A stretch of DNA of 64,000 nt, taken from IMG/VR virus record IMGVR_UViG_3300042260_000337; one strand, 5' to 3'. Every line of letters begins with the position of its first letter. The first letter of the stretch is position 1. Shown here piece by piece: positions 47,932 through 58,631 of this stretch. Source of the stretch: a virus (lineage: Duplodnaviria; Caudoviricetes). Both the position numbers and the translations under genes were made by a program. The notes beneath the pieces were generated by a model. It saw nothing but the letters and a program-made list of their open reading frames with translations, searched no databases and was not told where the DNA came from.

Positions 47932-49062
47932 TTACCTGTATTTTTTGAATATTGGGTGGACTTCCAATAGCTTCGTGTTACGTGAAGTATCAAGTCTGTC
48001 GTTGATGGAAAAGAATTTAGAAAAATCAGCTTCTTCATTTGTAATAGATTGTAATATACTCAACAGTCTATTTACAGTATCATAGTCATTTTGATTTAGG
48101 CAATTTACTTCTTTTATTTTATCTATTTGAGTAGCCATTTCATAGTTACTCCATTGATCTATTTTTAGATATTCTGGAGAATGTATTTTATCAAAGTATA
48201 AAAACCATTTAGGGAACTGAGAAGAAAAGTAACTATATATATCAAATACTCTATAAACGTTCAACACATTTATCACGGTGTGTATAGCAAATTTCATATT
48301 ATCAAAACAGAGTTCCTCGTATTTTTTCATATTTGAAATTACGACATCGAAGTTGCCATCAGTTCTGAAATAATTATAATGCTCAGTTATATCATCGACT
48401 GATACAATTAGATGGATTTGTTTTGCTTTTCGCAGTGAATTCAAAATACTATCGGTCGGTAATACAGACCCATTTGTTACTATCTCAATAGAAATGTTCT
48501 GTATTAGATTATTATCATCCAGCATATGAATTAGCTTACCAAATGATTTAGACAATATTGGCTCACCGCCTAATATCTTTATTTTTTCAATGTTTTTTAG
48601 AGAATGAAAATCAATTGATGATATATCTGGTTCTTGTAGTATTCGGTCTGGAACCCAATTTCCAAGCATAATGTCATCTTGTTTCCACCGACTACTACTT
48701 GCCGTTTTACAATGTCTACATTTCATATTACAATGATTACTGAACGCAATTTCAATACTTGTTATGTCAGAGTTTGGGTCACCAGTTATTTTTTGGTGCT
48801 GTAACATGTAATTATGAAACTGACGCATACTGGTTGCGCCACTATCTTCTTCGTTCCAGCAATGGTAGCAACCTTCATCACGAATGCCGTTTTTTAAGTT
48901 TTCTCTAACTGAAACCAAGTATGGGTCATTGAATGTTTCTGTAATAGTTTTACCATCCAGAAACAGTCTTTTATCGTGAAGTGGAGAATACCTACAGCAA
49001 GGATTCACCTCACCCATAGTATTGATAGCAAGGTGTGTTTCACTCAGCAAGCATCGTGTCAT
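47932..49062 (-). CDS. Radical SAM protein with N-terminal SPASM/twitch-like domain
   Basis: PCC..C..CW..E; CNMKCRHC; ILGGEP; VTNG. Confidence 0.85.
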   Translation of the reverse strand: MTRCLLSETHLAINTMGEVNPCCRYSPLHDKRLFLDGKTITETFNDPYLVSVRENLKNGIRDEGCYHCWNEEDSGATSMRQFHNYMLQHQKITGDPNSDITSIEIAFSNHCNMKCRHCKTASSSRWKQDDIMLGNWVPDRILQEPDISSIDFHSLKNIEKIKILGGEPILSKSFGKLIHMLDDNNLIQNISIEIVTNGSVLPTDSILNSLRKAKQIHLIVSVDDITEHYNYFRTDGNFDVVISNMKKYEELCFDNMKFAIHTVINVLNVYRVFDIYSYFSSQFPKWFLYFDKIHSPEYLKIDQWSNYEMATQIDKIKEVNCLNQNDYDTVNRLLSILQSITNEEADFSKFFSINDRLDTSRNTKLLEVHPIFKKYR

Positions 49063-49883
49063 TTGTTTCCATAAATTTTAGAAAGTGTAGATGGTCCTGC
49101 GACTCCATCCGCTGCCAACCCATTGTTGAGTTGAAATCTCATCACTGCTTCTTTTGTTGCAGGACCAAAGTTTCCGTCTGCAACTAGTCCAAGTGCTTGC
49201 TGTAGCTTTACAACATCATTTCCAGTTGAACCAAGTTTTAGTGTTGTAGATTTTGATTCTGAAATTTTCCCACCCAAAACAGAAAGTGCTTTGTTGTAAT
49301 ATTTCATTCTGTCTTCAAGACCGTTGAACCCGCCATTGATACGTCTGGTAAGAGCTTTCATGTCTTGTGCATCTGCCAGTGCGTTCAGATTATTTTTTGC
49401 CCAAAACCAGCAAGCAGATTCAATCGCACCTTCTTTGGTTTCAAGATATGAGATTGCTTGGTCTATAGTCATGTTCACAGACTTGGCAAAAGCTGTGTAA
49501 TTATCTTTTCCGGTGAGTTGTATCAACCCACGACCACGATGTTTCCAGCCATCATTTGGCTCAGTGTTACCCATGCGACCAGCATATACTATGTTCGCAA
49601 TCTTCTCTGGTTGACGAGCATATGCGTTTGCATCACGACCAGCATTGACAAAATACTTTGGAAATACTCTGTTCAAACCGTCTGCGGAATAGATCAAATT
49701 TTCTTGAACGACCGTGAATTGACCGCTCTCATGAGCACACTGTGCGAGGAAAGCAGCAACTCTAAGTGGCGAAGTAATATCGTATTTTGGTAATATTTTA
49801 GATAGTGGGTCATACCAAGAACCAGCATCTTTATTGTTTGAAAGTATAGAACACAATTGTTCTTTTGTTATAGGCAATGACAT
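49059..49883 (-). CDS. GH19 (chitinase-like) endolysin with C-terminal peptidoglycan-binding domain
   Basis: AAFLAQCAHES, ENL.YS, RGRGLIQLTGKDNY, RRINGG.NGL.DR; LQQALG..DG.FGP.T..AV..FQ..GL..DG.AG..T. Confidence 0.9.
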   Translation of the reverse strand: MSLPITKEQLCSILSNNKDAGSWYDPLSKILPKYDITSPLRVAAFLAQCAHESGQFTVVQENLIYSADGLNRVFPKYFVNAGRDANAYARQPEKIANIVYAGRMGNTEPNDGWKHRGRGLIQLTGKDNYTAFAKSVNMTIDQAISYLETKEGAIESACWFWAKNNLNALADAQDMKALTRRINGGFNGLEDRMKYYNKALSVLGGKISESKSTTLKLGSTGNDVVKLQQALGLVADGNFGPATKEAVMRFQLNNGLAADGVAGPSTLSKIYGNK

Positions 49884-51459: not shown

Positions 51460-51518
51460 AGTATACTCAGGTTGATGCTTTACTCTACATTTATATATGA
51501 TTTCTAAATGGTTGTCAA

Positions 51519-51544
51519 TAAAAAAACGCCCCGAAGGGCGTTTT
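51519..51544 (-). terminator. Rho-independent terminator
   Basis: AAAACGCCC-TTCG-GGGCGTTTTTTT. Confidence 0.8.
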
Positions 51545-51780
51545 GGTGAGAAGAAAAGTAAGTAACAGACACAGCAATCAACAACGGCCTATACGCCACT
51601 CAAGCAATACGCAATCTACAATCTGCAATCAAACCCTAATACCGACCATCAAAATGCAAGTCCGTTGGAATATCGGATAATAATGTCGGAACATGGCAGA
51701 AAAGAATGCAAAACCTTGCTTTCATATGAACGTTTTTGTAACTTGACAGTTACGAGTCTGTCCTAATCTCTTTCCTTCTC
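51544..51780 (-). ncRNA. Candidate 237-nt structured RNA ending in 11-bp stem + ACCA
   Basis: GAGAAGGAAAG / CTTTTCTTCTC-A-CCA; internal GTAACT-GTCA-AGTTAC, ACAGAC/GTCTGT; 7-nt GAUUG repeats. Confidence 0.55.
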
Positions 51781-51809
51781 CAAGAGGAACCCAAAGGTTC
51801 CTCTATTTC

Positions 51810-52373
51810 TTACAGCACAGATGCTTCCCGTAGAACGGCGAGTGCATCGTCCGATAGTTCAATCTGAACGCGCACGTTCAGTTCAAGGAGTTCGTCCTGA
51901 ATAGCTTGCTTGCGAAGTTTCAGTTCAGCAAGGCGGTTTTTGATTTCCGAAAGTTCGGCTTCATCAAAAATAGATGTGCGAATTTCTTCGTCAAAGCGAC
52001 CATAAGGGTCAGCCTCACGTCCCTTGATTTTGCCAATCTTACCGATTAGCACATCATGGGGAACCGCTGGTGCGATTCCAGAAATACGCTTCATAAGCAC
52101 AATCTCTTTTTCAAGACGTGCAACCGCAGCAAGGCGGGCAGAAATGCCATGTGCTTCGTTCTGTGAGCCAACAGCAACACGAATGTCGTAAAGAACATTC
52201 AGAAGTTGGTCACGAGTTGCAAGAGCAGCACCGAACTTGCTTTTTGCAAGGCTGATTTTGTCCGTAGGACGTTCAAACTCATTGATTGAAACTTCTGTAA
52301 CCAATGGAAGTGCATTGATTGCATCGTTTACTGCACGTTGAATAGCGTCTGCTTTGCGTAGAGAGATTTTCAT
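51810..52373 (-). CDS. All-helical coiled-coil protein (weak resemblance to DIP1984-type family)
   Basis: MKISLRKA..Q ... IQDELLELNVRVQIEL; SD GAGG before 52373. Confidence 0.55.
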   Translation of the reverse strand: MKISLRKADAIQRAVNDAINALPLVTEVSINEFERPTDKISLAKSKFGAALATRDQLLNVLYDIRVAVGSQNEAHGISARLAAVARLEKEIVLMKRISGIAPAVPHDVLIGKIGKIKGREADPYGRFDEEIRTSIFDEAELSEIKNRLAELKLRKQAIQDELLELNVRVQIELSDDALAVLREASVL

Positions 52374-52425
52374 TTCATTTCCTCGTTTGATTATTTTACT
52401 AATATACATGTAAGTGGTTGATTTG

Positions 52426-52614
52426 TCAAGGTTTTTTTTGAAGTTCAGCTATTTTTTCTTTTGCATCCAACACGTTGTGTAATGCGAAATCAAGAAGATA
52501 ATCTCCTTGTAATGGGTTGCCATTGTTGTGTTCCAAATACAAACGTAGATTTGATATGGCAGTCTCCACATAATCTTCTACTGTATTTTTTGTTGCTAAT
52601 GCAAACAGACCCAT
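52426..52614 (-). CDS. Hypothetical protein
   Basis: 62 aa ORF. Confidence 0.5.
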   Translation of the reverse strand: MGLFALATKNTVEDYVETAISNLRLYLEHNNGNPLQGDYLLDFALHNVLDAKEKIAELQKKP

Positions 52615-54802: not shown

Positions 54803-55444
54803 TTATCGTCTTACTACCCAACCACGAAAGTTATAGCTTTGCCAAACTTGGTCTGCATGACCAAGATATTTCAATTCTTCGGTGATTTCGGCATTAGTCA
54901 AACAAAACATCTTACCAATCAAACTGTAATCTTTATCCAAAATCTCAGTATCGGTGAAGTGTTTTCGTTTTTGGTTGTAGTGTTCTTTTGTCATGATAGA
55001 GTTTAGTTTGGCGGTATCACTGAATACCTTTTCGGCAAGTAGCAGTGTTGCACCGTTGTCTATCAACTCTTTCAACTTTTTTACAACTTGTCGGCGTTTG
55101 TATTTACCAAGAAACTGTAACGTGAACATAGATACGATCAGGTCAACGGATGTAAAGTTTTCCAATGCAGTGATTACATCTTGGTTGAGAAACACAAAAT
55201 TTTTATCAGACGCCATTTCAACTACGTCAATACCTACGTAGAAGCCCTCTGTTGAGGCAGAGAGGTCATTGAGAAACTTACCAGTGCTACATCCAATGTC
55301 AACGCACTGACCCTCTGGTGGCATGTATTCAAGGGCTATGGCTCTAAAAACGTCATATAGTCCTTGGTAGTTTGGAATAGAAAGGTTGATGTGATTGTCG
55401 AAATCTTCAACCTTCTGAAAGTCAAACTTGTTGTGCATCATCAA
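54803..55444 (-). CDS. cmoA: CmoA-like (carboxy-SAM synthase family) SAM-dependent protein
   Basis: F....FD.HI..SIPNY, DIGCSTG, FTLQFL, AEK, EI..K..L..M, VWQSYNF align with CmoA. Confidence 0.75.
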   Translation of the reverse strand: MMMHNKFDFQKVEDFDNHINLSIPNYQGLYDVFRAIALEYMPPEGQCVDIGCSTGKFLNDLSASTEGFYVGIDVVEMASDKNFVFLNQDVITALENFTSVDLIVSMFTLQFLGKYKRRQVVKKLKELIDNGATLLLAEKVFSDTAKLNSIMTKEHYNQKRKHFTDTEILDKDYSLIGKMFCLTNAEITEELKYLGHADQVWQSYNFRGWVVRR

Positions 55445-56315
55445 ATTCCCGTATCAACTCACCAACATGCTGAATGACATTTACCGTCATTCCATTATAC
55501 ACGAACTTTTGAGTATCGGTTAGGTCGCAACCATCAAACCAATCAATTGGGAACGACTGTAGAAGTAGTCGTTCAGTTGGAGTAACCCTGCGTATTCTAT
55601 TTTCAGTGATTACCAAATCTGTAAACTGTTTATAGTCTCGTTTACAAAGAGTTGATGCTAATCCTGATTCGGTAAATTCTGCATTGCTTTGACGAGTGAT
55701 GTAGGTAAAGGCTTCTTGCCCTCTTTCTGGCTTCGCCTCAAAACTCCACTCAAAGCCTTGTGAGATAGATTCCACTTTTCTTCTGTGTTCGTCAGTATCA
55801 CGTTCTCTAAACTTGAAGATTTCGGTTCCAAGGGGGATTCCGTCACGGACGGCCACAATGTAAACTCTACGTCTTCGTTGGGGAACTCCAAAAAACTTGG
55901 AGTCGTAGATTGTCCAAGTCGCATCGTACCCGATTTGGGCAAGGTCGTGTAGGACGACTTCAATTCCTCTGCCAAGGATTGCAAAGACGTTTTCAATGAT
56001 CGCATATTTTGGTTTCCCTTCATCTATAAGTCGTAGATACTCTTTCCATAATCCAGAACGTTCACCAGTAATGCCAGCACCTTTTCCACCTACAGAAATG
56101 TCTTGGCAAGGGAACCCCCCGCACATAACATCATACTCTCCACCTTTCAGTGAGAGAGTTTTTACGTTGTCAAAAATAACAGCGTTAGGAAAATTCTTTT
56201 TTAGAACCCGTGTGGCTGGTTCTTCGATTTCACACATGGCAGTTATATCAAACCCTGCGCGTTGAAGCCCAAGTTCAAAGCCACCGATTCCACTGAATAG
56301 TCCTAATACTTTCAT
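55422..56315 (-). CDS. C5-cytosine DNA methyltransferase-family enzyme
   Basis: LFSGIGG, GGFPCQD, ENV, QRRRRVYIV, RR.TP.E...LQ.FP. Confidence 0.9.
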   Translation of the reverse strand: MKVLGLFSGIGGFELGLQRAGFDITAMCEIEEPATRVLKKNFPNAVIFDNVKTLSLKGGEYDVMCGGFPCQDISVGGKGAGITGERSGLWKEYLRLIDEGKPKYAIIENVFAILGRGIEVVLHDLAQIGYDATWTIYDSKFFGVPQRRRRVYIVAVRDGIPLGTEIFKFRERDTDEHRRKVESISQGFEWSFEAKPERGQEAFTYITRQSNAEFTESGLASTLCKRDYKQFTDLVITENRIRRVTPTERLLLQSFPIDWFDGCDLTDTQKFVYNGMTVNVIQHVGELIREFDDAQQV

Positions 56316-57737: not shown

Positions 57738-57923
57738 GCCAAAGGAAAACAGAGCCAAAAATATCATAACGAGCGATTATGTTTCTGTTACTGTCCGCAT
57801 TTTCCCGCCCAGCCTCTCCCTATACCACTTGTTTTCACAGCCCGATATAGTCTCTTTGCGTTCACGGTGCTTCGTTCCACTCTTTAAAGGATGTGCTGCC
57901 TCTAAGCCAACCTCCTACTGAAC
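57738..57923 (-). ncRNA. Structured RNA containing a copy of 23S rRNA H43/H44 (uL11-binding GTPase-associated centre)
   Basis: AGGAGGTTGGCTTAGAGGCAGCACATCCTTTAAAGA (57916-57881) vs conserved 23S AGGAGGTTGGCTTAGAAGCAGCCATCCTTTAAAGA; closed by GTTCA/TGAAC; further helices downstream. Confidence 0.75.
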
Positions 57924-58631
57924 TTTCAAGTAATCATATTCTCCGCTTAGTAACTTTTCAACAAACGCAGGAACCATTTCTGTTGCAACCCCATCCATAC
58001 TTTCTGTAAACATATACTTGTTTTCAGAAGGATGTAGATTGATTTCAACAGTATGTGCTCTTGCTTTTTTCTTTGCAGTCTTCACAAATCCAGCCGCAGG
58101 ATAAACTGTTCCAGATGTTCCAATCGCAACAAAGATGTCACAACGTCTAAGTGCATCATCAATCACTTCCATGTAGTATGGAAATTCACCGAACCAAACG
58201 ATGTTTGGGCGTAATGCAGGATGATAGCAATCATCACAAATATCGTGTGTTTGCATCACTTCATTTGCAGTTGTAATGTCTCCACATTTTCTACAAATAG
58301 ATTCGTGCAAACTTCCATGCATATGCAATACGTTTTTTGACCCTGCTTTTTCATGTAAGTCATCTACGTTTTGAGTAATCAAAGTAACATCAAAATTTGG
58401 ATTATGCTGTAATGCTGCTAAAGCATAATGCGCTTTGTTTGGTCTTGCATCGGCAACTTCTTTACGTCTATGGTTATAGAAGTCTAATACAAGTTTTGGA
58501 TTTTTATAGAAACCTTCTGGGGTTGCTACATCAGTTACATCATATTCATTCCAACGTCCATCGGTATCACGAAATGTTTTGATTCCGCTTTCTGCGGAAA
58601 TTCCCGCCCCTGTCAATATGCATATTTTCAT
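57915..58631 (-). CDS. cobB: Sir2/CobB-family NAD-dependent protein deacylase
   Basis: GAGISAESGIKTFRD, FY..RR, TQNVDDLHE.AG, HMHGSL, LRP.IVWFGE, GTSG.VYPAA, EIN. Confidence 0.93.
   Translation of the reverse strand: MKICILTGAGISAESGIKTFRDTDGRWNEYDVTDVATPEGFYKNPKLVLDFYNHRRKEVADARPNKAHYALAALQHNPNFDVTLITQNVDDLHEKAGSKNVLHMHGSLHESICRKCGDITTANEVMQTHDICDDCYHPALRPNIVWFGEFPYYMEVIDDALRRCDIFVAIGTSGTVYPAAGFVKTAKKKARAHTVEINLHPSENKYMFTESMDGVATEMVPAFVEKLLSGEYDYLKVQ

Follow-up and report, generated by a model that had tools for sequence, protein, structure and literature searches.

A conserved, uncatalogued phage RNA with UUG triplets at 7-nt steps and its probable protein partner

The window analyzed here, a stretch of 64,000 nt, belongs to a 202.7-kb viral record that is 56% complete and contains many tRNA genes; the contigs of close relatives measure 330–350 kb. 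At the edge of the tRNA region, on the minus strand, lie a gene for a helical protein and, behind it, a structured RNA, with the following features in their 5' to 3' order:

52401–52429, minus strand: putative sigma-70-type promoter of the gene-plus-RNA unit, TTGACA-17-TATATT (pattern match only, 11/12 consensus)
51810–52373, minus strand: gene for a 187-aa helical protein, a putative remote relative of the DIP1984/DUF6847 fold (sequence and predicted fold)
51783–51804, minus strand: 5' hairpin P0 of the element, with which the RNA probably begins (38/47 homologues at z < -1.5 relative to shuffles, in all arrangements)
51548–51780, minus strand: structured core of the RNA, with terminal helix P1 closing it (from alignment A3 and model R1)
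51756–51780, minus strand: 5' arm of P1, with outer P1a (51780–51770), a conserved internal loop and inner P1b (covariation)
51738–51753, minus strand: variable hairpin P2 (predicted fold; length differs among homologues)
51633–51697, minus strand: domain P4 (strongest covariation of the whole RNA; invariant columns)
51650–51659, minus strand: UUG sites 1–2 in the P4 loop, 7 nt apart (spacing of 7 in 43/43)
51605–51628, minus strand: UUG sites 3–6, the single-stranded rail of four heptamers (lag-7 identity)
51586–51597, minus strand: optional hairpin P5 inserted in the rail (missing from 7/43 homologues)
51575–51584, minus strand: UUG sites 7–8, 7 nt apart, directly before the 3' arm of P1 (spacing of 7 in 43/43)
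51548–51570, minus strand: 3' arm of P1 (covariation)
51544–51547, minus strand: ACCA past the terminal helix (not conserved, 1/70 copies)
51515–51544, minus strand: intrinsic terminator, a stem at 51544–51523 followed by a U tract (sequence)
51490–51518, minus strand: promoter-like site of the next gene, TTGACA-17-TATAAA (read from the sequence)

The open reading frame from 52373 to 51810 is best taken as the gene, in preference to an alternative 199-aa call from 52409, because the longer call overlaps the promoter and the homologues begin with MKISLRK. With a promoter-like site before this start, a terminator after the RNA and a new -35 box past the terminator, the gene and the RNA look like a single transcription unit. 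Across homologous loci, TTGAC[AT] occurs within 110 nt past the RNA in 21 of 45, against a background of 13%. Elsewhere on the minus strand, the window carries a Sir2-family gene within the tRNA array (57915–58631); genes for a C5 cytosine DNA methylase and, behind it, a SAM-dependent methyltransferase, also lying among tRNA genes (54803–56315); and an endolysin-like gene that encodes a peptidoglycan-binding domain and has a radical-SAM gene behind it (47932–49883). An earlier note on this DNA had listed the open reading frame, the hairpin at 51804–51783, an 11-bp helix, an A-CCA end at 51547–51544 and the terminator, and all of these are present on the minus strand where it placed them.

The RNA is laid out as the terminal helix P1 with its conserved internal loop, two variable hairpins, the two-part stem P4 and an unpaired rail. 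The outer part of P1 is the 11-bp helix, in which 51780–51770 pair with 51558–51548; in P4, 51697–51695 pair with 51633–51635 (P4a) and 51689–51685 with 51642–51646 (P4b), and the internal loop holds an invariant UG (51693–51692) and a conserved AUA. Eight (U)UG sites are grouped 2 + 4 + 2, and the 7-base step within groups is kept in 42–43 of the 43 sequences of alignment A3, where the UG letters are nearly the sole invariants and the N4 spacers between them vary freely. Within the rail, identity at lag 7 is 0.556, compared with 0.317 ± 0.013 for shuffles, and in the seven homologues without P5 six heptamers run uninterrupted. The heptamers at 51630–51603 and the GAUUGC near 51575, to which the earlier note had drawn attention, are there and exceed chance, as judged by the uniqueness of the TTG run in the genome and by covariation in the 43 sequences. 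The conserved unit is (U)UG-N4 instead of the GAUUG then proposed, and three of the eight sites (51659–51657, 51652–51650 and 51584–51582) had been overlooked.

The ends of the molecule also differ from that first description, which had a 237-nt RNA preceded by a separate hairpin and closed by tRNA-like ends for maturation by RNase P and CCA addition. In loci where the RNA comes first, P0 starts immediately downstream of a -10 box or of the CCA of a tRNA, which makes it the probable start of the RNA; P0 is part of the element, whose length is therefore probably about 260 nt rather than 237. Across phages, the element measures about 240–260 bases. A CCA follows the terminal helix in one of 70 copies, that of the window itself, and the most common sequence after P1 in these copies is a run of U, so that the CCA end is, as far as these copies tell, a coincidence of this genome. 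At six loci (L056, L062, L064, L065, L066 and L071), the gene and P0 are separated by a further segment, some 80 nt long and rich in hairpins, within the first 90 nt after the stop codon.

Comparison among homologues shows a genuine, conserved RNA structure. In alignment A3, which has a mean column identity of 44%, compensatory changes are found at 25 of 25 pairs, a result that none of 500 shuffles matches; the shuffles ignore relatedness, which is partly covered by a slid-partner control and by APC ranking. The covariation score is 0.70, against 0.15–0.20 for slid partners, and is itself slightly low, one pair having been entered as 32–300 where 32–299 is correct. Among paired columns, G-U combinations outnumber A-C by 84 to 17, an excess that fixes the sense strand and favours RNA. 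A mutual-information scan gave no pseudoknot and no pairing that involves the heptamer spacers, the top covarying pairs all being nested. The folding energy of the window RNA is unremarkable (z -1.6), and the case therefore rests on comparison; for the naked RNA, a mispaired fold is predicted to be more stable, by about 12 kcal/mol, than the open fold backed by covariation. Four TTG at 7-nt steps occur a single time in the 202.7-kb genome. A small peptide was considered and is unlikely, since a 7-nt period would break the reading frame.

The association of the RNA with the gene holds in both directions. Scanning viral contigs with the single protein gave no match, and an alignment was required to recover the loci. 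Among the 80 viral loci fetched through the protein, 79 have the RNA beside the gene on the same strand, and in the 80th the contig ends before the RNA could appear. The RNA stands directly behind the gene in 49 of the 79 loci, further behind in 11 and in front in 19, at distances of up to 1.5 kb, and the arrangement has switched several times along the protein tree. None of the five genes that neighbor the pair in the window is present at any of the 80 loci. In the reverse test, a pattern of the UUG repeats alone gave 61 matches, 46 of which are the full RNA; all 41 of these that could be tested have the gene, and the remaining five have less than 300 nt of upstream sequence. The other 15 matches are not the RNA by nhmmer, and none has the gene. 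Matches of model R1 to the 43 loci from which it was built are a given; with 18 sequences as seed, nhmmer had already recovered 85 of 89 loci in its first round.

The cultured Brevundimonas phages Kikimora, Gurke and Domovoi carry the pair, as do a Salipiger plasmid and a bacterial contig, in the latter case with IS elements around it, and the 7-nt NUG run is kept in the cultured phages and on the Salipiger plasmid beside a protein only 33% identical. GTDB yielded one locus, which is rich in tRNA genes and is probably phage DNA in a bacterial bin. At 55 of the 80 loci the pair lies within 2 kb of tRNA genes, and in 13 the RNA abuts them. One locus has a GOLLD RNA (229 bits) between the gene and the heptad RNA (L086:3428–3888). 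In several phages, the heptad RNA is followed after 60–730 nt by the freshwater-2 RNA motif (L012:3440–3511, L024:3435–3501, L029:3330–3402, L050:2900–2970 and L067:3570–3640), two of these five sites reaching the gathering score.

The phage protein belongs to a branch of 1,693 clusters at 50% identity. Searches of Pfam, PHROGs, NCBIfam, PADLOC and PDB sequences gave nothing significant for it. Its AlphaFold2 model (pLDDT 90.7) has long helices and short strands near both ends, and in two independent searches the best solved structural match was 3KDQ, a DIP1984/DUF6847 protein of Corynebacterium diphtheriae (Foldseek probability 1.00, E 0.02, TM 0.48/0.57; VIA Z 10.7 over 141 residues), a fold match of moderate strength given that the query is helical. 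In the ESM Atlas, the model matches (TM 0.52/0.62) a cluster with 19% DUF6847. An hhalign comparison with DIP1984 is colinear and weak (P 0.0066, probability 5.7%, 119 columns; P 0.23 for the reversed control), and neither the window protein nor 18 homologues match at the cut-offs of PF20935 and NF038048. The protein, of 187 aa as compared with 150 aa for members of the DIP1984 family, is accordingly best described from its model as a remote relative with the DIP1984 fold, and by cut-off not as a family member. Its conserved residues are basic, amide or aromatic (R6, K7, R65, K115, K152, K155, Q12, N72, N166 and Y62) and would suit nucleic-acid binding; the pI is about 6.2, the protein not being basic overall, and it has no conserved His and no membrane segment. 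In BFVD, the predicted fold also matched uncharacterized proteins of Caulobacter phage CcrColossus, Vibrio phage Vp_R1 and Erwinia phage pEa_SNUABM_47, and of the giant viruses Yasminevirus and Catovirus.

A closed RNA whose rail has a 7-nt period also comes after the genes of bacterial members of the DIP1984 family. In metagenomes, genomes and plasmids (loci L092–L095 and L100–L187), these genes have a distinct conserved and uncatalogued downstream element of roughly 150–200 nt with a terminal helix, recognized by eye, and, in 50 of 66 non-redundant bacterial loci, a G-rich 3' motif, GAGGGUGGG. Identity at lag 7 in the bacterial rail is 0.388, against 0.268 ± 0.013 in shuffles, and at a few loci a hairpin is inserted in it. 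The conserved letters are UG in the phage subfamily, whereas the bacterial DIP1984 RNAs have A-anchored heptamers. Because model R1 did not find the bacterial RNA at the four bacterial loci searched with it, what the phage and bacterial RNAs share appears to be architecture, not sequence. DIP1984 genes are carried on 371 plasmid records, mostly of Acinetobacter (342). On one Acinetobacter plasmid the gene adjoins znuD2 (L185:1501–1962), and older papers label such plasmid genes septicolysin, a name considered a misannotation in the NCBIfam entry.

On these grounds, the gene and the RNA are probably the two halves of an undescribed protein-RNA particle. The earlier note's picture of a dedicated pair, in which an oligomeric protein binds iterated single-stranded motifs, gains from the two-way linkage, the unpaired invariant UUG, the covarying helices and the conserved basic residues of a helical protein; the binding in it is something that we infer. 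A single transcript of gene and RNA would start from the promoter at 52429, and the RNA would be released or stabilized with P0 at its 5' end and its two ends joined by P1. Unpaired triplets conserved at a fixed spacing, with spacers that are free to vary, point to a repeating protein surface. The protein would oligomerize via its long helices, each subunit (or dimer) reading one UUG and each N4 spanning the distance to the next subunit, so that the RNA would act as a ruler determining how many subunits assemble, about 2+6, and in which register. By analogy with HutP, which reads UAG-N4 repeats as a hexamer (PMC2425495), we think it quite likely that an oligomer docks one subunit per triplet at HutP-like spacing to form a dedicated RNP. 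In the third and weakest step of the model, the RNA would keep the protein assembled and harmless, and loss or cutting of the RNA in infection or stress would free an activity that serves in conflicts between phage and host or between phages. Such an RNA-restrained effector is our lead guess, drawn from the analogy with AbiF and from the spread on mobile elements, and we advance it as a tentative one; no toxicity or catalytic motif was found in the protein.

Were this last step the purpose of the whole module, the pair would be a toxin with an RNA antitoxin of a type III-like or AbiF-like kind, in which a harmful protein is neutralized by the RNA. Such a reading is conceivable, though we regard it as doubtful. 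It would fit a two-part unit with a promoter and a terminator, a protein that is never found without the RNA where this can be tested, relatives on plasmids and beside IS elements, and the precedent of AbiF, where an RNA neutralizes the toxin in trans (10.1101/2025.04.15.648962). The type III systems ToxIN, CptIN and TenpIN (PMC12283969) and AbiF/RCd22 likewise combine one protein gene with a dedicated RNA on mobile elements. However, type III loci run promoter, repeats, terminator, toxin, whereas here the RNA is behind the gene in 60 of 79 loci and, in the RNA-first loci inspected, no terminator separates RNA and gene; the antitoxin repeats of type III are pseudoknotted, whereas the units here are unpaired 7-nt steps with no pseudoknot signal. 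The protein moreover offers no conserved His or membrane helix and no convincing PADLOC match, and no endoribonuclease, other nuclease or HEPN fold is listed among its fold or family matches. The spacing itself recalls HutP and the hut terminator RNA of Bacillus subtilis (PMC2425495), where, as proposed here, an oligomer reads triplets at 7-nt steps in two clusters. A cis regulator of the HutP or TRAP type would bind the nascent repeats and control read-through downstream or its own expression, for which the unpaired triplet-N4 units, the order of regulator gene, repeats and terminator as in the hut operon (PMC2425495), and the RNA preceding the gene in 19 loci could all be cited. But HutP is a histidine-activated antiterminator with sites in a terminator before a fixed operon, whereas the phage triplets are presented by a closed RNA, clear of the terminator, and only 12 of 45 loci show a separate terminator hairpin behind the RNA. 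The genes downstream sort into 24 families among 38, many with a -35 box to themselves, the RNA can precede or follow the gene or stand as much as 1.5 kb away, and the protein fold is unlike HutP or TRAP, all of which makes cis regulation improbable.

A dedicated RNP is not the only arrangement in which gene and RNA would travel together, since co-inheritance is not proof of contact and a host protein could be the reader. Phages use tRNA regions against host RNA-cutting defences. The RNA might be a decoy that titrates a host RNA-binding protein or nuclease with a taste for UG-rich repeats, its neighbor protein being a stabilizer of the RNA or a co-regulated passenger, and the 55 of 80 loci within 2 kb of tRNA genes would suit such a role; nevertheless, we consider it unlikely, as both the strict two-way linkage and the difference in conserved letters between phage (UG) and bacterial (A-anchored) heptamers point to a private partner. 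Y RNA ends are joined by a helix, and Ro60/Y RNA, GOLLD and ROOL are, like the present element, structured RNAs in or near phage tRNA regions, yet no such model matches over it. That the RNA resembles a tRNA or Y RNA and matures through RNase P and CCA addition, as the ACCA after the helix in the window and the 13 loci where copies abut tRNA genes might suggest, is largely refuted: the CCA is confined to one copy in 70, there is no tRNA, tmRNA or YrlA match over the RNA, and no TROVE (Ro60) gene was found in the 56%-complete record. A DNA element, whether a single-stranded structure or a set of iterated DNA-binding sites, is very improbable in view of the G-U excess on the sense strand and the constant placement on the strand of the gene; no reverse transcriptase was found in the 56%-complete record, and a 7-bp period would not hold sites on one helix face. 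Comparable in genomic habit are the DUF3800-associated motifs (drum, skipping-rope and DUF3800-I to XI), terminator-ended RNAs found on either side of the gene of one protein family (PMC5737381); these accompany another protein and occur in either orientation, whereas the phage RNA is always on the strand of its gene.

With Rfam 15, tRNAs are the only matches in the window at gathering score, and relaxing the E-value in 27 related loci still gave no family that covers the element; RAGATH-27 (RF03100) has no match in the 202.7-kb record. In the searchable, largely non-subscription literature, neither a description of a UUG-repeat phage RNA nor a paper on an RNA partner of DIP1984, DUF6847, NF038048 or 3KDQ was found. 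Relative to Rfam and this literature, the RNA is probably new: conserved, uncatalogued and with a probable protein partner. What is added here is a subfamily marked by UUG, the layout of its eight sites, and a test of gene-RNA linkage in both directions.

Taken at its broadest, the proposal is that DIP1984-fold proteins and heptad RNAs form an undescribed class of RNP in bacteria, plasmids and large phages, in which the RNA is a ruler with one subunit per 7-nt step, the triplet that is read, UUG here, is specific to each subfamily, and the assembled particle serves phage-host conflict as a regulated effector; as a whole, we hold this to be possible and would put it below even. Bacteria and phages seldom yield a new kind of RNP, and here the conserved information lies almost only in a fixed 7-nt spacing of triplets, which suggests RNA-templated assembly. 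As the cultured phages Kikimora, Gurke and Domovoi carry both halves, the pair can be tested now, and the proposal, if true, would give a widespread family with no assigned function a testable partner and mechanism.
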